Shown: in pieces, positions 1,390-27,054 of the stretch | Position numbering within the stretch: the first letter of the stretch is position 1 | Layout of the letters: each line of letters starts with the position of its first letter | Origin: Candidatus Omnitrophota bacterium | GTDB lineage: Bacteria; Omnitrophota; Gorgyraeia; Zapsychrales; Aceulaceae | Reading direction: 5' to 3' | DNA length: 64,000 nt | Assembly (NCBI GenBank): GCA_029564765.1 | Contig: JAKQPK010000023.1 | Coordinates: forward strand, 11,479-75,478 | Notes under the pieces: generated by a model | What the model was told of the DNA's origin: nothing | Database searches by the model: none | The model's input: only the letters and a program-made list of their open reading frames with translations | Program-made: the position numbers and the translations under genes

Positions 1390-2177
1390 ACGATACGGCT
1401 CTCTTCTTTTTTCTGATAAAAATCAAGATCAAAAACTTCTCCATCAAAAATACATCCTTGCGCGGACATCAAAACGTATTCCTTGCCCACCTTGACCTCA
1501 TCTGTCCCACAAAATCCGATACCACTTAAAGCGAAAGGCTTAACGATCACACTGACCTTGATCTTATGTTGACGGCACAAGGATACGACATCCTGCATGT
1601 TCGCGGTATCCGCAGCGACATAGACTTGGCTAATAGCATGCCCTGCGATCGCCTGAGATAACATATCAGCGACACTTCCTTTTTTGCCTGCCGATCCATC
1701 AGCTGTAACAACGAATGCGCTATGGCAGCTCACACGCATCGCCGGCTCAAGGATAATGGTTTTCCGTGTAGACGCGCTCAAGATGCCAAAAACCTTATTT
1801 CCTTTTTTCTGATAATGCCGGCATACAGGCAAGACCTGAGCGATACCAAGCTCGTGGCCGACACCGACGACGATTCCTTGTGCATCCTCAAGGACAGGAT
1901 CGCCCAAAGGCCCTAAGACCGCGTGAACCTCCTCGTTGATCGCAAACCCACCAAATGCCTTTTCTGATAATGTTCGTTCATTAAAAATAAGCGTGATGGC
2001 ATTTTTCTGGACACTGGCCTCAACGATGGGAAAAGCCAAGCACTGCGACCTCTCCGTTGGCATCACAACAACAAATTGTCCCGGCTTTGCCTTTTGAACG
2101 ATAGACGGAGCTACGATGTCCATGCGCTTGGTTTCAGGCGCGATAATTTGTTTACTTAAGACTCGAAATTCACTCAT
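1386..2177 (-). CDS. oxidoreductase FAD/NAD-binding electron-transfer subunit, NfnA/SudB/PyrK-like
   Basis: 263 aa; ferredoxin-NADP-reductase-like fold signatures. Immediately precedes and is translationally coupled (4-nt overlap) to the GltD-like subunit, the gene order seen in NfnAB/SudBA. Confidence 0.65.
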   Translation of the reverse strand: MSEFRVLSKQIIAPETKRMDIVAPSIVQKAKPGQFVVVMPTERSQCLAFPIVEASVQKNAITLIFNERTLSEKAFGGFAINEEVHAVLGPLGDPVLEDAQGIVVGVGHELGIAQVLPVCRHYQKKGNKVFGILSASTRKTIILEPAMRVSCHSAFVVTADGSAGKKGSVADMLSQAIAGHAISQVYVAADTANMQDVVSLCRQHKIKVSVIVKPFALSGIGFCGTDEVKVGKEYVLMSAQGCIFDGEVFDLDFYQKKEESRIV

Positions 2178-2947
2178 AATGGTAAGTTAAAGAATTTTTT
2201 GGCATTCGCGTTCAAAACGTCTGCCGCTTTTTTCTTGTCTAGACTTTTAAGTTTAGCATAAACGTCAAGCGTAAAGAATACATCTTTTGGCCCAGCCTTA
2301 AAACTTTTTTCTTCGCTTAAGCGATACACGACCGGCGTATCCGTCTCGATCATGGTCTGCTCAATGGGTGCGAACTTCATAGCCTCCTGAAGCTGCGGGC
2401 TATAAAAAAGCGCTGGCGTCGCCGAGACAAGATATCCGCTTGCCAAAATATCTTGTAGGACATCCAGCGGCCCGCTGTACCAGTGAAAAACCGCGCGCGT
2501 CATACCGGACGCTTTTACCATATCAAAACATTCCCGCCACGCTCCTCGGCTGTGAATGATAACAGGAAGGTCGAATTCTTTAGCCAAATCCAGCTGCGCT
2601 TGAAGCACTTCACACTGTTGTTTTTTGCGCTCATCGCTTTTCTTGACCATCGGATACCAATAATCAAGTCCAATTTCGCCGATCGCCACGGCCTCGCTTC
2701 TGTGCTCACGGATGAACTGAAGCGTTGGCTCAATTTGCGGTGTAATGATATTGCCGGGATGAATGCCAAACGCCAGGAAAATCTTTGGCATTTTCCACTC
2801 TTTGGCGAGTTTCAAATGGATCTTGTTCGCGGCCAAGTCAACGCCCGCGGCAATGACCGCGCAAACGCCCGCCTCTGCTGCCTCGCGCAATTGCGCCGGC
2901 GCGTCATCGGTATGATCTAAATGGGCGTGGGTGTCAAGAAGAGTCAT
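2174..2947 (-). CDS. tatD: TatD family metal-dependent DNase/hydrolase
   Basis: 257 aa; N-terminal LLDTHAHLD metal-binding motif plus internal EIGLDY and HSR motifs of TatD/YcfH. 4-nt overlap with the downstream gene. Confidence 0.85.
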   Translation of the reverse strand: MTLLDTHAHLDHTDDAPAQLREAAEAGVCAVIAAGVDLAANKIHLKLAKEWKMPKIFLAFGIHPGNIITPQIEPTLQFIREHRSEAVAIGEIGLDYWYPMVKKSDERKKQQCEVLQAQLDLAKEFDLPVIIHSRGAWRECFDMVKASGMTRAVFHWYSGPLDVLQDILASGYLVSATPALFYSPQLQEAMKFAPIEQTMIETDTPVVYRLSEEKSFKAGPKDVFFTLDVYAKLKSLDKKKAADVLNANAKKFFNLPL

Positions 2948-2983
2948 GGTTAAAATGAAGTATTAAATTTCTGTAACATTAAA

Positions 2984-3703
2984 TCAAAACGTAATCCATT
3001 CTTTCCTATGATTAACATTCATCCTTATAAGGTTGATTCTTTTGCCAAACAAGTTTTTCATCTGATCAAAAATTCCAGCGTCTATATTACATCCACAATA
3101 TACTTTTTTAATGCCACAATCTAAGTGGTAATGCTCCTTTTTCTGAATGACCCTAAATTCCTTTTCATATTTCCAATGAGCTAATTTTGTCGTTAAGGCA
3201 ATTAGAGATTGTTCGTTAGCTATTTTAGATTTAGGGCCATGAATTATTTCCGGCAAATCTTCTTTATAATCAACTTGAAATATTCGTCTTTTAGTATCCT
3301 TTGGAATTCGATGACGTTCTCTTCCCGGAGGTGTTTTTACCATCAGAACATCGTCATCAGGCACCTCTATTTCAATGGCTATTCCGGCACAGCTATCCGC
3401 ATAATGCGCCCAGAGAAGAACGTCATCATTTTTCTCTGAAAGGCAACAGATCCTCTTGTTTTTCACAAGAGTATTTATTTTCTCAGCCTTTGGATCTGAA
3501 CTTGAAGAACTTTCATATTCACCACGGACCAAAGACCCTGCTGGTGACTTCTCTCTTTTAATACCCGTCAGATATCTCAAGCTAAACATCCCCTCAAAAG
3601 GATCGTTTAACTTATCGATGCTTGCGCAATAAAGCCGCTTATTCAACAAAATATCGTACACGTGACCAAGATTACTTAAAGACTTATATTTATATAGTTT
3701 CAT
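2984..3703 (-). CDS. DUF2971 family protein
   Basis: 239 aa; signature elements of DUF2971: N-terminal LYKYKSL, LNDPFEG, ICCLSE...LLWAHYADSCAGIAIEI and C-terminal HWKYEKEFRV (EkEwR-like). Lies in an AT-rich stretch. Confidence 0.6.
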   Translation of the reverse strand: MKLYKYKSLSNLGHVYDILLNKRLYCASIDKLNDPFEGMFSLRYLTGIKREKSPAGSLVRGEYESSSSSDPKAEKINTLVKNKRICCLSEKNDDVLLWAHYADSCAGIAIEIEVPDDDVLMVKTPPGRERHRIPKDTKRRIFQVDYKEDLPEIIHGPKSKIANEQSLIALTTKLAHWKYEKEFRVIQKKEHYHLDCGIKKVYCGCNIDAGIFDQMKNLFGKRINLIRMNVNHRKEWITF

Positions 3704-3745
3704 TTTGTTGTGCCGGGTTGGAATCTAAAAACTCTAAACAACGCT

Positions 3746-5023
3746 CTACTGCCCTAGCAAGGTATTTTCTTCTTCATCCCAGGGACGTTCAGAAGTAGTT
3801 TCGTATTGGTCATGGGATTTGGGGTTGATATATCCGTTGCAAGTCTTATCATTGACTCTGATTTTTTTCTTAATCCATCCCAAGCGCATCATGCAGTCAG
3901 CAACGCGCCTCTGCCTGCCACGGTCGAAGTCAGAGGAGAAACCCTTCAAGCATTCTGTCCAAATATCAATGCTTCTTACCTTGGCCTTGCCGATAAGATA
4001 TTTCTCGATGGAGTCCTTCCAGCTATCAAAGGCATCAGGAGGACCTTGCACGTCTTCGGCATGCGAAAAAAGATATTCCAGAGCGATATTCCATTGCTTC
4101 TGTGTAGGATAATGGCTTAAAACAATCCCGCTGTTCAAAGCGCATTTTTGAATATTAATATATTTGATCAGCTTGTTATTTTTTATTGTTATTTGAGAAT
4201 CATTAATCACTAGAACCGATGTGTTTTTATCTTGCCTAAGTAATTTTACGATGCCAAAGGTATTGACAGCATTGACAGTATCCTCATCGCTCTGAAGACT
4301 TTCAGTTTTACATGAAGAAGGCAGAACATCTTCAGCATTTAAAAAAAGATGTTCAAGGGCACGATGCCATTCACCTTGCTCTGGAGAATGGCTCAGAACA
4401 ATCCCCTTGTTCAAAGCAGACTTCTGGATATTGCTGTATTTCATTATCTTATTATTTCTTATCTCAATTTCATGGCCATTTATTATCAAAATAGAAGTAT
4501 TATTACTTTTCTTCATGAGCTTTGTGATACCGAAGGTATTCACGTCAGCTTCTTCATCCTGAACAATATAAGATGCATCACCGGAAACTTTGACAGGAAT
4601 ATCTGTGATCCTGGAAAGCGAACCATCAGCATTATATCTAAAAAACTTTATTTCGGTCTCAGAAACAACAACGCCAAACAAAGCTCTCGCTACTGCAAGA
4701 TAGGAAACAAGTTGATGCTCAGTGTCCTTGTCCGCTTTTATCTTAATTTCAGCAATGATCAAGGGGGTTCTTTTATCGCTTAAAACTACGATGTCCGCGC
4801 GTTTCTTAGTGATGCCGATCTGGATAGGGTATTCTGTGATAACGGAAATAGGATCATAATTGTAATGCAAAACAAGCTTAACAAGAAACAACTGTCTCAC
4901 TACTTCCTCCGGCGTAGCCACTCGCTCGCTGGTGAAGTATTTGCTACAAATACTGCAAGCTCCTGAACCTTTTTCCGTTATAAGAATTCTGGACAAAAGG
5001 TCTGGTCGCATTGACCAAATCAT
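3746..5023 (-). CDS. HsdR-N-like PD-(D/E)xK nuclease-fold protein with two internal ~92-aa tandem repeats and a VirE/primase-C-like C-terminal tail
   Basis: 425 aa. The N-terminus (EYPIQIG...RADIVVL...PLIIAEIK) matches the type I restriction enzyme R-protein N-terminal (PD-D/ExK) domain pattern D...(E)xK. Residues ~156-233 and ~246-325 are two copies of the same unit (VNTFGI.KL....NTS.L.IN...I.I.NNK..KY.NIQK.ALN.GIVLSH.P.Q..W..ALE.LF..AEDV). The C-terminal RRVADCMMRLGWIKKKIRVNDKTCNGY resembles VapE/P4-primase C-terminal segments. AT-rich; SD aaggag upstream. Confidence 0.5.
   Translation of the reverse strand: MIWSMRPDLLSRILITEKGSGACSICSKYFTSERVATPEEVVRQLFLVKLVLHYNYDPISVITEYPIQIGITKKRADIVVLSDKRTPLIIAEIKIKADKDTEHQLVSYLAVARALFGVVVSETEIKFFRYNADGSLSRITDIPVKVSGDASYIVQDEEADVNTFGITKLMKKSNNTSILIINGHEIEIRNNKIMKYSNIQKSALNKGIVLSHSPEQGEWHRALEHLFLNAEDVLPSSCKTESLQSDEDTVNAVNTFGIVKLLRQDKNTSVLVINDSQITIKNNKLIKYINIQKCALNSGIVLSHYPTQKQWNIALEYLFSHAEDVQGPPDAFDSWKDSIEKYLIGKAKVRSIDIWTECLKGFSSDFDRGRQRRVADCMMRLGWIKKKIRVNDKTCNGYINPKSHDQYETTSERPWDEEENTLLGQ
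4049..4558 (-). repeat. in-frame ~276-nt tandem duplication inside the 3746..5023 CDS (two protein repeat units)
   Basis: Two collinear DNA segments (~4049-4288 and ~4325-4558) encode the two 80-92-aa repeat units; aligned stretches are visible at nucleotide level (e.g. ...aacaatcccgctgttcaaagcgcatttttgaatatt... vs ...aacaatccccttgttcaaagcagacttctggatatt...). Confidence 0.7.
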
Positions 5024-5052
5024 AAGACATATCTCCTTTTAATTTAATAAGA

Positions 5053-5070
5053 AACCCCTAAAACCTTTCT
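5053..5070 (-). promoter_or_regulatory. conserved upstream motif copy A (AGAAAGGTTTTAGGGGTT), 30 nt upstream of the 3746..5023 CDS start
   Basis: Gene-sense reading: ggcAGAAAGGTTTTAGGGGTTtcttattaaattaaaaGGAGATATgtcATG. Confidence 0.5.
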
Positions 5071-5072
5071 GC

Positions 5073-6044
5073 CTAAATCAACAAGTTCAAAATAACTTTG
5101 ATCAACAATTCTTTTTCTTCCGGCTTGCTCGCGGCAACCATAAGGGTCAAGGCGACCAACGCGTTGTCATCAATTCGCTTACTGCCGTCTTTGCGTAGAA
5201 GAATACCGTTTTTCTGCAAGAAACAGATAAAAAGTGCCGCCGCGATACGCTTGTTACCGTCAACAAAACTGTGGTTTTTTATAACGAAATACAATAAATG
5301 CGTAGCTTTTTCTTCGACCGTCGGATAAAGATCCTTTCCTCCAAACGTTTGATGGATAGCGTTGATGGAGCTTTGAAAACTCTTGTCCTTTTCCCGGCCA
5401 AAAAGCGGAAATTCCTTGAGCTGCTGTTTCATGGCCTGGATGATATTTTGAGCATGTTCATAAGTAAAAGCGAACCGAACTTGCCTTGTTCCCTTAGGGG
5501 AAGAAACCTTTTGATGATCGTAACCATCTAAAATATCAAGCGCGCGGCCATATTCTGCAATGACCTTGATCAACCCCTTAGTCTCATCGGATAGGCTATC
5601 AAGCTGGATGACGTTGCCTAAAAGCTTAATAGACCGCTGCAGTTCGAGATATTTATGTTCGGCAGTTTTCAACCGCTTTTCATTGATCGTATAGCCATCG
5701 ACCAAATGCTTCTTGAGCACCTTTGTGGCCCAGATACGGAAGCGGGTTCCATTCTTTGATTTGACACGGTATCCAACTGAGATAATGACATCGAGATTAT
5801 AGAAATTGGCTTCATAGGATTTCCCGTCAGAAGCAGTTATCCGGAATTTCCGGATAACTGCCTTTTTCGATAATTCTTGTTCCTTAAAAATATTCTGGAT
5901 GTGCTCATTGACAGTTCGCATGTTTCTACTAAATAACACAGCCATCTGTTTTTGGGTAAGCCAGACAGTCTCTTTTTCAAGATGAACTTTCAGGTCTTTG
6001 CCATACAAAACAACTTGACCCTTTGAAGCTTCATTGTTGATCAT
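5073..6044 (-). CDS. RhuM-family N-terminal domain fused to Fic/Doc-family domain (Doc-type motif)
   Basis: The table ORF runs to 6137, but the start is taken as ATG 6044 (MINNEASKGQVVLYGKDLKVHLEKETVWLTQKQMAVLF, a typical RhuM N-terminus) with a GGAG-type SD upstream. The C-terminal half carries HSFVDGNKRIAAALF, matching the Fic/Doc core HxFx(D/N)GNKR. Confidence 0.62.
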   Translation of the reverse strand: MINNEASKGQVVLYGKDLKVHLEKETVWLTQKQMAVLFSRNMRTVNEHIQNIFKEQELSKKAVIRKFRITASDGKSYEANFYNLDVIISVGYRVKSKNGTRFRIWATKVLKKHLVDGYTINEKRLKTAEHKYLELQRSIKLLGNVIQLDSLSDETKGLIKVIAEYGRALDILDGYDHQKVSSPKGTRQVRFAFTYEHAQNIIQAMKQQLKEFPLFGREKDKSFQSSINAIHQTFGGKDLYPTVEEKATHLLYFVIKNHSFVDGNKRIAAALFICFLQKNGILLRKDGSKRIDDNALVALTLMVAASKPEEKELLIKVILNLLI

Positions 6045-6060
6045 GTCAATATCTCCCCTC

Positions 6061-6079
6061 AACCCCCAAAAACCTTTCT
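6061..6079 (-). promoter_or_regulatory. conserved upstream motif copy B (AGAAAGGTTTTTGGGGGTT), 17 nt upstream of the RhuM-Doc start
   Basis: Gene-sense reading: gggAGAAAGGTTTTTGGGGGTTgaggGGAGATATtgacATG. Shares both the motif and the GGAGATAT SD-like block with copy A. Confidence 0.5.
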
Positions 6080-6081
6080 CC

Positions 6082-6525
6082 CTACCCTCTACTCTCCAAG
6101 ATGAAAGTGACGGGCCCGTCGTTAATGAGTGCCACATCCATCATGGCGCGGAATTGGCCGGTTTGAACCTTTTGGCCAGCGCTTTTAAGCGCATCGACAA
6201 ACGCGTTATAAAATTCTTCACCTTTTTGCGGATCCGCGGCCGCATCAAAAGAAGGGCGCCTGCCTTTTTCGCAGGCGCCCAAAAGTGTAAATTGCGAAAC
6301 GACCAAAAATTCCCCGCCGACTTCGGTAATAGAACAATTCATCTTGCCCTGAGCATCTTCAAAAATGCGAAGTTCAATAAGCTTTCTGACAAGATAGTTG
6401 ATATCATCTGCTGTGTCTTCTTTGGCAACGGCTAAAAAAACCAATAACCCTTTGCCGATACGGCCCACCACCTGGCCGCCCACCGTGACACTCGCCTCTT
6501 TGACCCTTTGCAAAACGATACGCAT
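6082..6525 (-). CDS. dtd: D-aminoacyl-tRNA deacylase
   Basis: 147 aa; MRIVLQRV start, SQFTL and NDGPVTF motifs characteristic of Dtd. Confidence 0.85.
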   Translation of the reverse strand: MRIVLQRVKEASVTVGGQVVGRIGKGLLVFLAVAKEDTADDINYLVRKLIELRIFEDAQGKMNCSITEVGGEFLVVSQFTLLGACEKGRRPSFDAAADPQKGEEFYNAFVDALKSAGQKVQTGQFRAMMDVALINDGPVTFILESRG

Positions 6526-6951
6526 AAATATTATTCCTTATATTTTTATTAAATGATTATAGGGTACTTACCCTTTCAGGTCAACACTGGCAAGGGAAGC
6601 GAGAAAATTGATAAAAATCAATGTATCCTCTTTGCGTAAGGCGTGCTGTCATTATCCCTCGCTCAAACATCCTTCGCTCGCCTGTCTTTTCCAAACAGCT
6701 GCGGAATACAGGCGGCTAAGGAAACTCGCGAACGGACAACGCCAGCACGCTCTCTGACCAGGGTAAGCGAAAAAAGATTATCTTTTTGAAGCAGGACGTT
6801 GTTGAGGTTTCACTGCTGGCGATAAAGTGAAACCGAAAAGTCGAGTAAATTTTTCACGCTGGGGAAAATTTACATTCCTGAGAAGAAAAGATAATCTTTT
6901 AAGACCCCGCGTCGTCCCGCCTAAGTGGGACTCCTGGGACAAATTCGCACG

Positions 6952-7035: not shown

Positions 7036-9228
7036 ATGTCCGATGTCCGCAAAACCTTACTGGAATACCAATTCCCCGAAAGCGTTATCGATGCCGTCAC
7101 TTCCAATGGCATAAAGAAATTCTATCCACCGCAGGCGCAAGCCATCAAGCACGGCGCCTTAGATGGCAAAAGCCTTCTTTTAGCAATTCCCACAGCTGCT
7201 GGAAAGACGTTTGTCGCTGAGCTATGCATGATCAAGTCCATCATCCAAAACGGCGGACGATGTCTTTATATTGCACCCTTAAAAGCTCTAGCGAGCGAGA
7301 AGTTTAACGATTTTCAGAAAAAATATGAGCCTTTAGGAATCCATGTCGGCATTGCAACAGGCGATCTGGATAGCCCCAGCAAAAGCTTGAATCGTTATCA
7401 AATATTGATCGCCACCGCCGAGAAAGTGGACGCGCTATTGCGTTCCCGCGCTAAATGGCTTATTGATAATCTTTCGGTTGTGGTCTTAGATGAAATTCAT
7501 TTCATCAACGATGAATCCCGCGGTCCAACGCTTGAAATTCTCACCGCGCGCATCAAACAGCTGAATCCTAACGTTCAGCTTCTTGCGCTGAGCGCTACGG
7601 TCAAGAACGCCAGCGAAATGGCGCAGTGGCTGAAGGCAGAATTCGTGGAAAGCACCTGGCGGCCCGTGCCGCTACGCGAAGGGGTTTATTTTAACGAAGA
7701 AATTGTTTTTGACGGGTTTGGCAGGAAGGCTATTCACGAAGACGAATTTCCAGATGACTTGACCAAACTGACGCTGGATACTTTGCGCGGCAAAGGACAA
7801 GTGTTGGTGTTTGTCAACAGCCGCCGCTCGGCGCAAGCCTCCGCGTTATTGCTTGCAAGCCCGGTGTCGGAGCTTCTCAAACCTAGCGAAAAAGAATTGC
7901 TCAAGGAGCTTTCACAACAAGTCGTCAAAGGAAGCGGTGAAGCGACAAAGATTTGCCGCAAGCTCTCTAATGTCTTAGAACACGGCGTTGCTTTTCACCA
8001 CGCGGGGCTTCGGCCAGAACAACGCAAGATCATTGAAGACGCGTTCCGTCAAAATTTGGTCCGTGTCATCTGCTCTACGCCAACGCTCGCGGCCGGAGTG
8101 AACCTCCCTGCCCAGCGCACTATCTTGCGCGACACCAAACGCTACGAATCAGGGCTTGGCGCCGCTTACATTCCGGTTTCCGAATACAAGCAATGTGCCG
8201 GACGTGCCGGACGGCCCGGCTACGATGATTTTGGTGAAGCGGTCATCATCGCGAAAACCTTTGCCGAGTCGCGGCTTCTCTTTGAACGCTACATTGAAGC
8301 CGCCCCTGAGCCTGTCATTTCTAAATTAGGAAGCGAATCGGCCTTGCGCATCCACATCTTGGCTTCTATTGCCGCCGGACACGTGCACGATATCAATGAG
8401 ATGTTTGAATTCATCTCGCATACATTTTTAGCCCACCAAAAACTCACGGGCAACTTGATCGAGCTTATCAGCAAGATCTTTGATTTCTTGGAAAAACACG
8501 GACTTATTGAAAAAAGCGGATTTCGGTATTTCGCAACAGCCTTTGGTCAATGTGTAAGCCGCCTGTACATTGACCCCATCACAGGCATTATGCTCCATCA
8601 AGGCCTCGCGAAAGCCCATCGGACCGGCGGATATTCGGCAACAGGATTATTACACCTTGTTGCCTGCTGCCCTGACGCGGAAAGGCTTGCGAGCATCACA
8701 AAATCTGACTATGAACAACTGGAAGGATTTATGTCTTCTTGTGGGGATGAATTTATCGTGACAGCGCAGGATTTTCCTGATCTGGAGGATTTCTTTTTTC
8801 AATTGCGTGTTCTAAAAACAACGCTTCTCTGGTCGCAATGGATCGATGAAACAAAAGAAGATGATCTCTGTGATCGTTTTAATGTCGGGCCAGGCGATAT
8901 TCACCGTCATGTAGAATCCGCGCAGTGGATCCTCTATGCAGCCTCCGTTATCGCTGAACTTTTTAAATTTAAACGCCTCACCTTCGCGACCGATGACCTC
9001 AAACGCCGCATCCAATACGGTATTCGCGAAGAACTCCTCGATCTTGTCCTCTTAAAAGGCGTAGGACGCATTCGCGCGCGCAATCTTTTCTCCAAAGGAT
9101 TTAAAAAGCTTTCTGATCTTCGCCTGGCACCCCTCGATGATATCGCCAGTGTCCCGCAGATCGGCAAGGCTCTTGCCAAGGATATCCTCAATCAAATTCA
9201 AAATTTCAAAGTCAAAAGTCAAAAATAA
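7036..9228 (+). CDS. Ski2/Hel308-family DEAD/DEAH-box DNA helicase
   Basis: 730 aa; Q-motif region (FYPPQAQAI), Walker A AIPTAAGKTFVAE, DEIH box (VVLDEIHFI), SAT, helicase C motifs (HHAGL, QCAGRAGRPG), and a C-terminal ratchet/HhH-like domain arrangement typical of Hel308. Confidence 0.8.
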   Translation: MSDVRKTLLEYQFPESVIDAVTSNGIKKFYPPQAQAIKHGALDGKSLLLAIPTAAGKTFVAELCMIKSIIQNGGRCLYIAPLKALASEKFNDFQKKYEPLGIHVGIATGDLDSPSKSLNRYQILIATAEKVDALLRSRAKWLIDNLSVVVLDEIHFINDESRGPTLEILTARIKQLNPNVQLLALSATVKNASEMAQWLKAEFVESTWRPVPLREGVYFNEEIVFDGFGRKAIHEDEFPDDLTKLTLDTLRGKGQVLVFVNSRRSAQASALLLASPVSELLKPSEKELLKELSQQVVKGSGEATKICRKLSNVLEHGVAFHHAGLRPEQRKIIEDAFRQNLVRVICSTPTLAAGVNLPAQRTILRDTKRYESGLGAAYIPVSEYKQCAGRAGRPGYDDFGEAVIIAKTFAESRLLFERYIEAAPEPVISKLGSESALRIHILASIAAGHVHDINEMFEFISHTFLAHQKLTGNLIELISKIFDFLEKHGLIEKSGFRYFATAFGQCVSRLYIDPITGIMLHQGLAKAHRTGGYSATGLLHLVACCPDAERLASITKSDYEQLEGFMSSCGDEFIVTAQDFPDLEDFFFQLRVLKTTLLWSQWIDETKEDDLCDRFNVGPGDIHRHVESAQWILYAASVIAELFKFKRLTFATDDLKRRIQYGIREELLDLVLLKGVGRIRARNLFSKGFKKLSDLRLAPLDDIASVPQIGKALAKDILNQIQNFKVKSQK

Positions 9229-9366: not shown

Positions 9367-10110
9367 TTATCGTTTGTGGTTAAGAAAGCGCGCGCTTTTC
9401 ATGTGCCGCTCAAGATGATAGACAAGAAAATTGTTGAGGATAAACTTGAGCTCTTTTTGGGTTAGAGCGGTAAGCCTAAGGCGTAGAATATTTTTCCATT
9501 CACCTTTTTCGATATGCACAAGCGACGCGATAGTCCCGCGTGAAACGTGTGTGGCGGCGTGATCATTACCATAACAGTTCTCACAAATAAGCCCGCCGAG
9601 CTTCATGCTAAAATGCATCTTCGGCGATATCTTAGCCTGGCAAACGACGCATGAATCCAAATACGGACGAAAACCCGACAACAACAAGATCTTGATCTGA
9701 AAGACATGCACAAGCTTGCTGACATCATCCGTATCCTCAAGGGTGTGAAGGTACCTTAACAGCAGATCATAGATCAGTTCGTTCTTTTCCTCCATTGGCA
9801 TAATGGAATCAACAAGCTCAAGGGCGTAGCTCGCCGCCAGAGTACGCTTGATGTCCTGACGGATCTTGAAAAAAAACGCCTTAAGATCGCACTGACCTAC
9901 CAAATGCAATTCCGCGTCACGGTGAAAATAATAGACGATATCATTAACGGAAAATTGATCGATGTTGCTACCGAATTTTTTGTGATCCTTGCGGATACCT
10001 TTAAGGACCCCCTTGATCTTGCCGTGATCACGGGTAAAGAAAGTCGCGATACGACTGGTTTCGCGAAAATCAAAACGTTTCAGGACGATACCTTCGGTTT
10101 TTAAGATCAT
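9367..10110 (-). CDS. recO: DNA repair protein RecO
   Basis: 247 aa; N-terminal OB-fold region (EGIVLKRFDFRETSRI) and a C-terminal Cys4 zinc motif (CVVC...CENC) typical of RecO. Last gene of the conserved phoH-pgpH-ybeY-recO block. Confidence 0.8.
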   Translation of the reverse strand: MILKTEGIVLKRFDFRETSRIATFFTRDHGKIKGVLKGIRKDHKKFGSNIDQFSVNDIVYYFHRDAELHLVGQCDLKAFFFKIRQDIKRTLAASYALELVDSIMPMEEKNELIYDLLLRYLHTLEDTDDVSKLVHVFQIKILLLSGFRPYLDSCVVCQAKISPKMHFSMKLGGLICENCYGNDHAATHVSRGTIASLVHIEKGEWKNILRLRLTALTQKELKFILNNFLVYHLERHMKSARFLNHKR

Positions 10111-10547
10111 TTCTTTTTTAGGCGGGCTAAAACGGCTTTTTCTTTGGCACGCATGCGCGTGATATCTTTGGCGCTATGGTCATCAAAACCCAACAGATGC
10201 AAGATGCCGTGAATGATATACAACAAAAGCTCATCAGAAACGGTCGTCTTGAAAACCTTCGATTGGCGCTTAGCGGTGTCCGCCGAGACGACCACCTCGC
10301 CATACAGACCATGGGCGCGCCCGATACAGCTTGAGGCCAAATTAAACGCGAGGACATCTGTTGCGTAATCGTGCTTTAAATATTTTTGGTTCAAAGATTT
10401 AATATGAGAGTCGCTGACGATCGCGATAGAAAGGTCCGCGGCGGCAATGCCTTCATGAGAAAGGAACTTCTTAACCTTGGCTGCTATCAGGTGAGGGCGT
10501 AAGGGAATTCGCGTCTGGAGGTTTCGAACGTCGATTTGCGTTTTCAT
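10107..10547 (-). CDS. ybeY: rRNA maturation endoribonuclease YbeY
   Basis: 146 aa; conserved H..HG.LHL.G.DH zinc-binding motif (HGILHLLGFDDH). Confidence 0.85.
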   Translation of the reverse strand: MKTQIDVRNLQTRIPLRPHLIAAKVKKFLSHEGIAAADLSIAIVSDSHIKSLNQKYLKHDYATDVLAFNLASSCIGRAHGLYGEVVVSADTAKRQSKVFKTTVSDELLLYIIHGILHLLGFDDHSAKDITRMRAKEKAVLARLKKK

Positions 10548-24315: not shown

Positions 24316-24439
24316 TTAAATTGATTATAACAATACCCAACACCTTAAATTATTGTACTGATTGAATGAAAAAAATCCAGAGGAAAAATTAACTGAGGCC
24401 ATAACTTACGGAGCAACAGCGCTCGTAAGTTATCCAGCC

Positions 24440-24561
24440 GAACTTATTTCGAGCCAAAGGCGAGGAGCAAATGAGCGCCAAATTGTTCATGCGAACTTAT
24501 TTCGAGCCGAAGGCGAGAAGCAAATGTGCACCCAGATCCACTGGCGAGGAGCCAGTGAGCA
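24440..24561 (+). repeat. non-coding direct repeat, 53-bp period, two full ~39-bp copies plus a partial third
   Basis: gaacttatttcgagccaaaggcgaggagcaaatgagcgc (24440-24478) and gaacttatttcgagccgaaggcgagaagcaaatgtgcac (24493-24531), then gcgaggagccagtgagcac. Preceded by hairpin taacttacg-N13-cgtaagtta (24402-24432). Period is not a multiple of 3 and no ORF is maintained. Confidence 0.6.
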
Positions 24562-24626
24562 CACAAGTTGAAAAGAAAAGATTGGGACACTTCTATCAAA
24601 ACCCCTTATCCGCCAACGGTTTATTT

Positions 24627-24647
24627 AGAAACGTTCTAGGGTTTTTT
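24627..24647 (+). promoter_or_regulatory. conserved motif variant copy D (AGAAACGTTCTAGGGTTTTTT) inside the non-coding stretch
   Basis: Plus-strand copy, 19/21 identical to copy C. A weaker relative, gggggAGAAAGTTCTAAGC, sits at 24941-24960. Confidence 0.4.
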
Positions 24648-25082
24648 CCGCTAACCTTTTATTCACAAACAACGAACAACGGTAACAACGAAAATGTGCC
24701 AGGCACTTTTTAGTGTAAATCAGCTGATAGGCAGAAGGTTAAAGCTATTTCACCTTAACCCAGAAACGGAAATATTTAGCCTTTACAGGATAAATCGTCT
24801 TCCCATTCCTAATGATGTACCGGCAGAATACCAAGCGGCATCCCGGACGGTATTCACATTGTCCAGCCATATGCTGACCCTCCTTTCTAGCGAAGGTTTT
24901 CTCACCTCCAAGCCCATTTTGTAATTTTCAAAAAGGGGCTGGGGGAGAAAGTTCTAAGCTAAAATAGAAGATCATCAAAAGGACGACCCATCTGCCTATC
25001 AGCAATATTCAAAGAACTCCGAATTCCAGGGACACGTACAAAATTAATTAGGTACGTATCCCCTGACTCCTTGTAAGAATTT

Positions 25083-26339
25083 TTATCGAAAACTTGTTAT
25101 TTCATTAAATATTTCAATTGCAAAATTATCGGTCATTCCGGCAATGAAATCAATAACAGATTGTGTATAGCTTCCTTTGTCTGCCAAAACATACAATATT
25201 TCATTATTATATTTATTTCCTAAACTACGAAACTTTGGATACGACATTGGCCAGCTCCTAAGGTCCGACCGTCCCTTTATCCACGCCAAGAAATTTCTTT
25301 GCAATATTGGATAAACTTTTAGACTTTTTTTGATGCTCTCGTATGAATCTCTTTGCGCATAAGCCCTCATCAAAACCTCAAAAACTAACTCTATAACAAG
25401 CTTCGCATACTTTTTATACGCTTGCAATCTTTCGCTGCTATAGATATTTCTATAGTTGTACTCGGTCAAAGAAGTCATTACTTTTGAATACTTTTCTGTG
25501 AACCGTATGCCATTTTCTGGGCTGCTAGCTCTACATAAATCAATGATAAATCCATGCATTAAAGCTGTGTTGCTTATCTCGCGAATTTTTTCTTTTTTTC
25601 CAACTATATCATTAACTATGGCTTTTAATTCTTTGAGCTGCTGTTTCCTTAAAATATCTAACCGCACAGCATCTTCAATGTCTCTGCCTATATATGCAAT
25701 TCGATCGGATATCTTTACTACGCATCCCTCCCATGTAAAAGGAGTAAATAACCCTTTTTCTTGGATAGTCGCCAAATCTATTGCTTGTTCTCTTGGATAA
25801 ATCGTATTTCCTCTATCTTCCCCACAATGCAGCAAGATTCCGTCTCTCACTGCATAGGTTAACAATAAATTCTGGAAAACATCATTTTGATCAGGCAAAA
25901 TTTCAATTTGATCAGCAAATCGTAAACTATTTCGTTCATGCCAAAATTTAGCGCTCAATTTATCTTTAGTAATTTCCTCTAATACTTCTTCACCAGCATG
26001 ACCAAAAGGAGCGTGCCCAAGATCATGACCCAAAGCTATTGCATTAGTTAATTCAGTGTTTAAGCCAAGAAAATTAGCAATTGTATAACTGACAGCAACA
26101 ACATGATTAACATGCTCAATCCTGGTACAAATATGGTCGTTTTTTGTAGCAAAAAAAACTTGTGTTTTATGCTTTAATCTCCGAAAAGCCGTACAGTGAA
26201 GTATCCGATTATAATCTCGCGCAAATTCGCTTCTTATCTCTGGATCGCGTGAATACAATGAATGCTGTCGCTTAATAGCATTTTCCCATTTTCTATTTTT
26301 CTCATACATTCTGACAGAAAAAAATGAGTCTTTTCCCAT
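25083..26339 (-). CDS. dGTP triphosphohydrolase-family HD-domain protein, divergent second paralog
   Basis: 418 aa; motifs (RILHCTAFRRLKHKTQVF, HVNHVVAVS, GHDLGHAPFGHAGEEVLEE) are collinear with the canonical dgt-like gene at 43009..44214. Sits in an AT-rich segment. Has the conserved upstream motif and a GAGG SD. Confidence 0.72.
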   Translation of the reverse strand: MGKDSFFSVRMYEKNRKWENAIKRQHSLYSRDPEIRSEFARDYNRILHCTAFRRLKHKTQVFFATKNDHICTRIEHVNHVVAVSYTIANFLGLNTELTNAIALGHDLGHAPFGHAGEEVLEEITKDKLSAKFWHERNSLRFADQIEILPDQNDVFQNLLLTYAVRDGILLHCGEDRGNTIYPREQAIDLATIQEKGLFTPFTWEGCVVKISDRIAYIGRDIEDAVRLDILRKQQLKELKAIVNDIVGKKEKIREISNTALMHGFIIDLCRASSPENGIRFTEKYSKVMTSLTEYNYRNIYSSERLQAYKKYAKLVIELVFEVLMRAYAQRDSYESIKKSLKVYPILQRNFLAWIKGRSDLRSWPMSYPKFRSLGNKYNNEILYVLADKGSYTQSVIDFIAGMTDNFAIEIFNEITSFR

Positions 26340-26356
26340 ACAAAAACCTCATAAAA

Positions 26357-26372
26357 ACCCCAAAACGTTTCT
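26357..26372 (-). promoter_or_regulatory. conserved upstream motif copy C (AGAAACGTTTTGGGGTT), 18 nt upstream of the dGTPase-paralog start
   Basis: Gene-sense reading: gatAGAAACGTTTTGGGGTTtttatGAGGtttttgtATG, within the 34-nt gap between the ORF6N and dGTPase-paralog genes. Confidence 0.5.
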
Positions 26373-26373
26373 A

Positions 26374-26871
26374 TCAAAATCCAAGCTTACCCTTGGGCTT
26401 TTGCGGCTCTTCGAATAGATTTTTCAAAGCACTAAATACTACTTGAAATTGCTTGTCGTATTTCCTTTCCATCTCTTCGATTTTACGCCTGATATTAACA
26501 TTTGTTAAAGACATCCGGCGTAATTGGGTAAATGCGCGCATGATTTGAATGTTGACAGCGATCGCCCTATCGCTACTTAATACTCCCGAAAGCATCGCAA
26601 CGCCTTGCTCGGTAAAAGCTAAAGGCAAGTGGGGCGAAAATTTTAAGAATTTGAGGTGGTCGCAAATTGCGACCACCTCTTCTTTTTCTTTATTCGTTAA
26701 CTGGAACATAAAATCTTCCGGGAATCGTTTTTTGTTCCTTTTTACCTGCTCGTTGAGCCGTTTTGTTTGCACGCCATACAATAAAGCCAAATCGCTATCC
26801 ATCATGACTTTTTTGCCCCGAATGAAGAATATCTTGCTGGTGATAGCCTCAGCTGAAATTAAATTAGGCAT
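26374..26871 (-). CDS. ORF6N (KilA-N-related) domain protein
   Basis: 165 aa; IFFIRGKKVMMDSDLALLYGVQTKRLNEQVKRNKKRFPEDFMFQLT matches the ORF6N domain consensus. AT-rich. Confidence 0.62.
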   Translation of the reverse strand: MPNLISAEAITSKIFFIRGKKVMMDSDLALLYGVQTKRLNEQVKRNKKRFPEDFMFQLTNKEKEEVVAICDHLKFLKFSPHLPLAFTEQGVAMLSGVLSSDRAIAVNIQIMRAFTQLRRMSLTNVNIRRKIEEMERKYDKQFQVVFSALKNLFEEPQKPKGKLGF

Positions 26872-27054
26872 GACTGTTCTTCCTTCCCGCAGGATACGCT
26901 TCTGAGCTGAAAAAATAAGATTTCACGGATACATACACCGTTAGTCAGATATCTACTGCCAGACTTTTAGCTAATTTGATATATACCACTCACGTGTGTG
27001 GATGTCAAGAAATTTCCCCAGGTAGCCTCTAAATGTCTTGATCATTTATTGCTT

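Follow-up and report, generated by a model that had tools for sequence, protein, structure and literature searches.

On a 64-kb stretch of DNA from a metagenome-assembled genome of Candidatus Omnitrophota (hereafter the window), the housekeeping genes dtd and tatD are separated by an AT-rich accessory islet of three genes (2948-6081, minus strand), which is probably a small defence locus. The phylum Omnitrophota comprises bacteria that are ultra-small and uncultured, and on whose immunity little work exists. The islet is bordered upstream by dtd, which encodes a D-Tyr-tRNA deacylase (6082-6525, minus strand; Pfam Tyr_Deacylase, 6.9e-60), and downstream by the gene of a tatD-family hydrolase (2174-2947, minus strand; TatD_DNase, 5.3e-55). 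The interval is filled by three intact minus-strand open reading frames (ORFs) with intergenic gaps of 36-49 nt, whose products are named by NCBI (HOD12369.1 to HOD12371.1) as a DUF2971 domain-containing protein, an HsdR N-terminal domain-containing protein and a RhuM family protein. Read from dtd, these are (i) a RhuM-Doc fusion of 323 aa (5073-6044), with an N-terminal RhuM domain and a C-terminal Doc-type Fic domain, (ii) a nuclease of 425 aa from a rare family (3746-5023), which combines a PD-(D/E)xK domain, two 73-residue modules, a winged helix and an acidic tail, and (iii) a DUF2971 protein of 239 aa (2984-3703). An earlier note on this DNA had proposed three co-directional genes between housekeeping flanks, and both the ORFs and the Pfam matches of the two neighbours agree with it. 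The longest ORF of the RhuM-Doc gene extends over 5073-6137 (354 aa), but its true start is placed at the ATG at 6044, because the gene calls of public contigs and the PADLOC profile alignments begin there; for the nuclease gene, NCBI uses a start at 5011 (421 aa) instead of that of the 425-aa ORF.

The composition of the islet sets it apart from its surroundings, as the same note had stated. Its GC content is 0.394, against 0.461 +/- 0.020 for 3.1-kb segments slid along the window, and its GC content at third codon positions (GC3) is outlying as well. Only five of 609 segments are as AT-rich, and these lie at ~23.8-24.2 kb, beside a second AT-rich locus (25.1-26.9 kb). When the 49 ORFs of at least 150 aa are ranked from the lowest GC content upward, the DUF2971, nuclease and RhuM-Doc genes are second, third and sixth, with values of 0.36, 0.40 and 0.42.

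A scan with TatD, taking one genome per species, retrieved ~45 Omnitrophota loci. In ~40 species, tatD directly follows dtd, with a gap of a few nt to ~250 nt, and a divergent Hel308-like helicase gene is likewise found upstream. Since dtd and tatD adjoin in these ~40 other species, the three-gene segment is an insertion into a junction that is closed elsewhere, and its genes look foreign and have no housekeeping role. All three genes are present on each of the 11 public contigs that encode an identical TatD (11/11), so that the islet is fixed in the population. In the window, the divergent gene (7036-9228, plus strand) encodes a 730-aa Hel308/Ski2-like protein in which a helix-hairpin-helix domain accompanies the 'Archaeal helicase domain 4'. 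This helicase is of archaeal type, although the phylum is bacterial, and the position of its gene relative to dtd is conserved across Omnitrophota.

The gap between dtd and tatD is occupied in four lineages: the window, its closest relative (a sister species, locus L008, with a TatD 92% identical) and two others, L030 and L045. The L008 gap contains a RhuM-Doc gene, two ORFs without a family match, and a winged helix-turn-helix-nucleotidyltransferase/HEPN (MNT/HEPN) pair, which matches the PADLOC candidate PDC-M05A/B. Both L030 and L045 carry genes for a secreted FGE-sulfatase-like protein and an AAA_14/DUF4143 ATPase, the latter matching PDC-S01. The junction between dtd and tatD is thus a recurrent landing site, the cargo of which consists mostly of defence candidates. 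The association of a ~540-aa FGE-sulfatase-like protein with a PDC-S01 ATPase is an unusual pairing, conserved in both species (L030, 580-3453; L045, 3925-7111). Gaps between the helicase gene and dtd in four further loci (L046, L047, L054, and L055) were considered as part of the hotspot and rejected, as they hold membrane or metabolic genes rather than defence genes.

In the first gene of the islet, a RhuM domain (Pfam Virulence_RhuM, 84.5 bits for a cut-off of 33.7; 9.6e-24) and a Fic domain (48.1 bits for a cut-off of 24; 2.2e-12) are carried by a single polypeptide. The Doc catalytic motif, HxFx(D/N)(A/G)NKR, can be read in the translation as HSFVDGNKR, which is of the Doc type, with a K where Fic AMPylases have their second G; a RhuM-family protein with a C-terminal Doc-type Fic motif had been recognized in the earlier note, all of whose domain assignments in the islet (DUF2971, HSDR_N_2, Virulence_RhuM, and Fic) score above their Pfam cut-offs. 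The classical representative, P1 Doc, phosphorylates EF-Tu. The fusion protein also matches the PHROG 'Doc-like toxin' family (4.5e-18), while its score against TIGR01550 (DOC_P1), 36.0 bits, is just below the curated cut-off of 38.65. Its strongest match is to a PADLOC model of the candidate PDC-S23 (PDLC04965, 5.7e-129), which pairs residues 48-353 of the long ORF with positions 18-323 of a 327-position profile, and two more PDC-S23 models match at 2e-122 and 8e-117. The likeness to PDC-S23, called 'virulence protein RhuM/Fic/DOC family protein' by NCBI, consists in this full-length profile match, an identical two-domain architecture, and the HxFxDGNKR motif.

RhuM-DOC fusions have been described before, and a role as a protein-modifying toxin has been proposed for RhuM (Anantharaman et al., 2013; PMC3710099). 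Their classical context is a type I restriction-modification (R-M) operon (PMC3710099; also loci L100, L108, and L136 here), whereas the gene of the window sits in a housekeeping operon. A RhuM-only candidate, PDC-S05, and the PDC-M05 pair have both been reported to lower phage plating in Escherichia coli (PMC12881386); the phage-tested relative of PDC-S23 is therefore of the RhuM-only and not of the RhuM-Doc type. Plasmid homologues annotated RhuM/Fic/DOC are 38-47% identical to the fusion protein and come from many phyla. Although RhuM-Doc shares its catalytic motif with the toxin of the Doc/Phd type II toxin-antitoxin systems, it falls under the TIGR01550 cut-off, and no Phd-type antitoxin gene lies beside it: its neighbours are dtd and the nuclease gene, and the flanking gaps (37 and 49 nt) contain no small ORF.

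The RhuM-Doc gene of the sister species occupies the same position and its product is 88% identical. Between the two species, the ratio of nonsynonymous to synonymous substitution rates (dN/dS) of this gene is 0.069, with a dS of 0.97, and the housekeeping neighbours give comparable values (dtd, dN/dS 0.056 and dS 1.29; tatD, dN/dS 0.072 and dS 0.70). Because dN/dS and dS resemble those of dtd and tatD, the descent of RhuM-Doc has been vertical, and under purifying selection, at least from the time when the sister species separated, while the genes downstream of it have been exchanged.

The DUF2971 protein scores 24.8 bits against the Pfam family (cut-off 22), which confirms the earlier assignment, and matches the PADLOC candidate PDC-S31 over residues 1-232 (PDLC04991, 3e-49) as well as phrog_1762 (1.2e-34). 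Its plasmid homologues are only 22-30% identical. A validated antiphage protein of this family, Aristaios, is encoded on a lactococcal plasmid; it has 316 aa, an ADP-ribosyltransferase-like fold, and a reported abortive-infection phenotype (PMC11381338). The protein of the window shares with Aristaios and PDC-S31 a DUF2971 domain above the Pfam cut-off, the PDC-S31 match and a single-gene organization, but it is shorter (239 aa), and the two can be likened by domain family only.

The middle gene is the new element of the locus. Its N-terminal region (residues 38-143; 4595-4912, minus strand) is an HSDR_N_2 domain (Pfam PF13588, 66.3 bits), as the earlier note had suspected when it spoke of an HsdR-N-like PD-(D/E)xK domain. 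In an AlphaFold 2 (AF2) model, residues 10-140 have a predicted local distance difference test (pLDDT) score of ~90, and a Foldseek search with the nuclease domain returned as its best match the nuclease domain of BsaXI, a type IIB enzyme, along with 3ijm (restriction-endonuclease-like), Cas4, DrdV, and Card1. The residues E64, D77, E92, and K94, which form the D...ExK signature with E92-x-K94, are invariant in 11 members of the family, and the catalytic site is, on the predicted PD-(D/E)xK fold and these residues, intact.

This domain is followed by two copies of a family-specific module of 73 residues (copy 1, residues 161-233, 4325-4543; copy 2, residues 253-325, 4049-4267; both minus strand). 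The copies are 63% identical (BLASTP E = 7e-34), so the tandem repeats announced by the earlier note are real. Outside the family, nothing resembles the module: it has no Pfam or PHROG match, a sequence search of the PDB gave only noise (E >=0.37), and a profile of the module matched only family members and nothing in VapE helicases or in any phage locus fetched, which makes it peculiar to this family among modular single-protein defence nucleases. In the model, copy 1 has three strands and then two helices, but with a pLDDT of 60-70, and that of copy 2 is below 50; given these values, no fold is claimed for the module. When 1.84 billion cluster representatives were searched exhaustively by HMMER with the two repeats, 10 matches were obtained, one of them a low-complexity false positive, and a word-indexed search of 5.8 billion proteins gave four relatives with the same architecture. 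All members share one layout, in which the nuclease domain is followed by one or two 73-residue modules and a variable C-terminus. Most relatives have a single module; two are present in the protein of the window and in one relative, P0022. The two copies of the window are more alike (63%) than either of them is to the single copy of the closest relative (55% for copy 1), which points to a duplication within the lineage of the window.

The HSDR_N_2 domain recalls type I HsdR subunits, but the superfamily 2 (SF2) motor of the latter is missing here (no ResIII or helicase domain by Pfam), as are the hsdM and hsdS partners: the 64-kb window holds no methyltransferase core, specificity-subunit or helicase remnant, and type I methyltransferases match it only through the HSDR_N_2 domain. 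BsaXI and DrdV (types IIB and IIL) have the same nuclease domain, which here is found without a methyltransferase, a helicase or a target-recognition domain. A decayed type I R-M locus was therefore considered and rejected, as the window lacks a methyltransferase core and conservation in the nuclease family spans the whole protein.

More generally, the islet could be selfish baggage, made up of toxin-like addiction genes or of the remnants of a type I R-M system or mobile element, and kept by post-segregational killing or by chance. Doc is a classical toxin of toxin-antitoxin systems, type I enzymes begin with an HSDR_N_2 domain, and in 3 of 80 metagenome loci a gene for an HSDR_N_2 methyltransferase has a RhuM or RhuM-Fic gene downstream of it; the MNT/HEPN pair at the L008 junction and the fixation of the islet, which is not polymorphic, point the same way. 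All the ORFs are intact, however, RhuM-Doc is constrained to the degree of the flanking housekeeping genes, and no catalytic residue varies in the family of the nuclease, which unrelated bacteria conserve over the full length of the protein. In addition, gaps of 36-49 nt are too short for an ORF encoding a Phd-like antitoxin, and the remnants expected of an R-M system are missing. This origin of the islet is, in our view, improbable.

The C-terminus of the nuclease, whose link to phage helicases the earlier note had missed, consists of a winged-helix domain (residues 333-401; 3821-4027, minus strand) and a disordered acidic tail containing PWDEEEN (3749-3820, minus strand; pLDDT ~50; charge +2/-7). 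Phage VapE-type helicases end in a domain and tail of this type, and the tail is common to these helicases in the alignments. The closest sequence is P0005, a 433-aa VapE-like (PF05272) helicase whose match to phrog_1313 ('DNA helicase') covers the entire protein and which is encoded on L007, a phage contig with an Endonuclease VII, an SNF2 helicase, a DnaG-type zinc ribbon beside the helicase and a T7-type portal. Over the last ~97 residues (residues 337-433 of P0005) the two proteins are 70% identical, rising to 75% over the 67 columns of the core, and the DNA is 77% identical over 209 nt. In this core, the protein of the window is closer to P0005 than is any other phage helicase in the comparison (no higher than 69%), whereas the same region of its paralogue P0021 is only 22% identical to its winged helix. 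Scored with a profile of 120 helicase C-termini, the protein of the window reaches 98 bits and P0021 43 bits, with nothing significant among the other family members. Judged from these comparisons, the winged helix nests inside the phage helicase clade, and the parsimonious explanation would be that a phage of the P0005 lineage supplied the specificity domain, whether by capture or by replacement. There is no PF05272 match in the nuclease, and the P-loop ATPase/helicase core is absent; by sequence, it shares one domain with the VapE-like or D5-type superfamily 3 (SF3) helicases without being a member of that group.

Structure prediction agrees with this relationship. A model based on an alignment of 22 helicase C-termini shows a helix-strand-helix-helix-hairpin arrangement with a core pLDDT of ~89, followed by the disordered acidic tail. 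The PDB structures retrieved by Foldseek are winged helices of the cohesin winged-helix domain (WHD), PadR, MarR, STIV F93, and Stf76, all with E >1e-3, and because of these values they give the fold class only. Among viral models, the best matches are phage 'Virulence-associated E'/COG5545 proteins (best 3.6e-6), two of which superpose with a root-mean-square deviation of 1.3-1.4 A over 70-74 columns. The recognition helix and the wing carry a charge of +10/-2. Searches of viral contigs for exact C-terminal peptide patterns found no match, and a scan of these contigs with the helicase alignment found only distant relatives of the C-terminus (25-42% identical).

The combination of a nuclease with a winged helix would also suit a type IV modification-dependent endonuclease, in which the winged helix senses modified bases of phage DNA and not an origin or a replisome. 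Characterized fusion endonucleases dependent on N6-methyladenine have this architecture (PMC11037411); in the window, the PD-(D/E)xK site is intact, the winged-helix fold is predicted with a pLDDT of ~89, and the lack of a methyltransferase core fits an enzyme without a cognate methylase. Yet the nearest relatives found for the winged helix are C-termini of phage VapE-type helicases, among which it nests and with which it shares the acidic PWDEE tail. The characterized counterpart of the domain, moreover, reads origin iterons: this is the SaPI Rep helicase, whose C-terminal winged helix recognizes them (PMC9371898). A type IV function of the middle gene accordingly seems rather improbable to us.

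The SaPI Rep/PriRep and VapE-like helicases (PF05272) share with the nuclease C-terminal sequence homology (98 bits), fold and acidic tail, but they have an ATPase/helicase core where the protein of the window has a nuclease, and the gene of the window is chromosomal and outside any replication module. On L007, a non-coding region of 860 nt (9572-10436) contains 11 TATAACA repeats, in both orientations and within 270 nt, plus four copies of TATAAGTAAG; it is a plausible candidate for a replication origin and a possible target of a VapE-type winged helix. The 64-kb window has seven copies of TATAACA, which are scattered. With the charge of the winged helix, the SaPI Rep precedent and the iteron cluster of L007, origin binding is a reasonable hypothesis.

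A bolder proposal, which would amount to an immune strategy not yet described, is that the nuclease works by mimicry of the origin-binding or replisome-binding part of its target, finding an invader through the invader's own helicase winged helix and acidic tail, and cutting there. We regard it as tentative and, on the whole, unlikely to be correct. Under such a mechanism, the variable C-termini of the family would record successive invaders, of the VapE type in the protein of the window and in P0021, and possibly of the Cch type in P0002. The C-termini of nine family members gave nothing significant against Pfam. In P0002 (L003, 7017-8114), a sub-threshold match to HTH_56, the Cch helix-turn-helix domain of the SCCmec helicase (E = 0.044, 14 bits), hints that other members of the nuclease family may also carry C-termini from helicases of mobile elements.

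A prophage or integrative-element remnant was also examined as the source of the islet and was rejected: the only tRNA of the window is at 47.5 kb, there are no long terminal repeats, and the similarity to L007 is limited to the winged-helix segment.

Expression of the islet probably depends on dtd. A promoter-like site upstream of this gene (6556-6584, minus strand; TTGACC-17-TATAAT, 11/12 matches in a promoter motif scan) has no equal inside the islet, where no convincing terminator was seen between the genes either, and from these features this promoter likely serves dtd, the islet and tatD. The junctions themselves carry a 24-nt direct repeat (repeat family D4), 21/24 identical, one copy starting at the stop codon of dtd and the other at that of RhuM-Doc. 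Copy 1 (TAGGGAGAAAGGTTTTTGGGGGTT; 6061-6084, minus strand) extends from the stop codon of dtd to the ribosome-binding site of RhuM-Doc, copy 2 (TAGGCAGAAAGGTTTTAGGGGTTT; 5052-5075, minus strand) from the stop codon of RhuM-Doc to the ribosome-binding site of the nuclease gene, and either copy is followed by GGAGATAT and then ATG. The duplicated 5' region that the earlier note had seen before two of the genes is thereby confirmed.

The core of the repeat occurs four times in the window, against 0.31 expected. As a motif it reads [stop]-AGAAA(G/C)GTTTT(N)GGGG, and its window sites on the minus strand are 6062-6079, 5053-5070, and 26355-26372, the third of which follows an ORF6N (PDC-S05) gene (26374-26871) and precedes a dGTPase-like HD gene. 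In the L008 islet it is found at two to three junctions (2773-2788, 3330-3344, and ~1759), and elsewhere in ~1.8 Mb of fetched loci there is only one chance-like match. No exact 18-mer of the motif was found in viral contigs, it has no Rfam family (the tRNA is the only Rfam match in the window) and no hairpin was seen by eye. The genes that it precedes (RhuM-Doc, the nuclease gene, the dGTPase-like HD gene, and two L008 ORFs without a family match) all appear to be accessory. The motif may represent the junction of a cassette or a leader or operator common to these genes, or it may be no more than the local setting of a ribosome-binding site. The two L008 ORFs, of 162 aa (2782-3270) and 294 aa (3434-4318), are located between RhuM-Doc and the MNT/HEPN pair, each with the motif before it; they have no Pfam or PADLOC match, and it is possible that they are uncatalogued defence genes.

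The second AT-rich locus (25083-26871, minus strand) consists of the ORF6N gene (26374-26871; PDC-S05, 1.4e-62), followed by the dGTPase-like HD gene (25083-26339; PADLOC dGTPase, 2.5e-52), whose GC content of 0.352 is the lowest of the 49 long ORFs. Between the two, the junction motif takes the form TAGAAACGTTTTGGGGTTT. Near 27000, downstream of the groEL terminators, lies a strong promoter-like site that belongs to the pair itself, TTGACA-N17-TATATA. A stretch of 767 nt (24316-25082) has no minus-strand ORF of at least 80 aa and no Rfam match. This stretch includes, at ~24430-24540 on the minus strand, two copies, ~35 nt long and ~55 nt apart, of CATTTGCT(T/C)CTCGCCTT(C/T)GGCTCGAAATAAGTTCG, and, at 24627-24644 on the plus strand, a copy of the junction motif with three mismatches.

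The organization of the islet raises the possibility that its three genes form one co-operating system, with sensing by DUF2971, effector roles for the nuclease and the Doc kinase, and co-regulation as an operon. The genes are co-directional and tightly packed, with no strong promoter or terminator inside; two of them share a 5' motif, and every contig of the population has all three. Against this, the L008 islet keeps an orthologous, constrained RhuM-Doc with wholly different downstream cargo, the nuclease and DUF2971 genes being replaced by the two ORFs without a family match and the MNT/HEPN pair. The loci fetched for true members of the nuclease family contain no DUF2971 or RhuM-Fic gene, so the association of the three families that the earlier note had proposed to look for does not recur there; the neighbours are instead an MNT/HEPN pair (L003-L006), a HigA-like gene with lipoprotein genes and a transposase fragment (L088), or a HigBA-like pair with ISL3 fragments (L091). 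The plasmid homologues of RhuM/Fic/DOC (129 records) and of DUF2971 (12 records) likewise stand alone among unrelated genes, PADLOC models both PDC-S23 and PDC-S31 as single-gene candidates, and the GC contents of the three genes are unequal. A three-component system is thus very improbable. Since L008 keeps RhuM-Doc with other cargo, and the homologues of each gene occur without the other two, the three genes are not one system and are independent of each other.

The favoured explanation, which we hold to be probable, is a small, horizontally acquired defence islet in the conserved dtd-tatD operon junction, composed of three independently acting modules. The earlier note had proposed a candidate defence or toxin module that corresponds to no named system. 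A defence or toxin role is indeed the best reading of what the genes encode: two of the three match the PADLOC candidates PDC-S23 and PDC-S31, the same junction carries other PADLOC candidates elsewhere (PDC-M05 and PDC-S01), and PDC-S05, PDC-M05, and Aristaios protect from phage. The single three-gene module is what did not stand. As to the names, RhuM-Doc is known from the 2013 fusions and as PDC-S23, and DUF2971 from PDC-S31 and Aristaios; the nuclease does lack a named system, and what is new here is its rare family together with the helicase-derived winged helix.

In this islet, transcription would probably start at the dtd promoter. The RhuM domain may be the sensing or regulatory part of RhuM-Doc, whose Doc-type Fic domain, once activated, would phosphorylate a translation factor, as P1 Doc does with EF-Tu, and halt protein synthesis, leading to abortive infection. 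The nuclease might be brought by its winged helix to the DNA of a phage replication origin, or by its acidic tail to the replisome, and would then cut the phage DNA. The DUF2971 protein, finally, could be an effector of the Aristaios/PDC-S31 type, probably also acting by abortive infection.

Several points weigh against this interpretation. No experiment here shows defence, and we infer the anti-phage function, the targets and the triggers; 'PDC-S23' and 'PDC-S31' have no mention in the literature searched, and both are candidates only. Fixation in 11/11 contigs means that the islet lacks the presence/absence polymorphism typical of fast-turnover islands, and it has no integrase, tRNA site or long terminal repeats to mark a route of arrival. 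Within the nuclease, the 73-residue module has no recognizable fold in the AF2 models. The direction of transfer, from phage to host, is suggested by the distribution of the winged-helix domain, and the synonymous sites of the host and phage copies are saturated, with a dN of 0.21, which would make the capture an old one, the protein sequence having been constrained since. The function assigned to the VapE C-terminal domain draws on the analogy with SaPI Rep, and the domain may make protein contacts instead of binding DNA.

Overall, this is a small defence islet of an ordinary kind, with two of its three genes in catalogued families. RhuM-Doc nevertheless offers a natural case in which strong purifying selection has lasted as long as that on its housekeeping neighbours, while the adjacent cargo was turning over, and the middle gene represents a very rare nuclease family whose presumed specificity domain is common to phage replicative helicases. 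If mimicry proved true, podophages of the L007 type would be linked to Omnitrophota hosts. More broadly, targeting of the origin or replisome would, if true, add a new logic to the repertoire of sensors and effectors, and would allow uncultured phages to be paired with their hosts on the basis of sequence.

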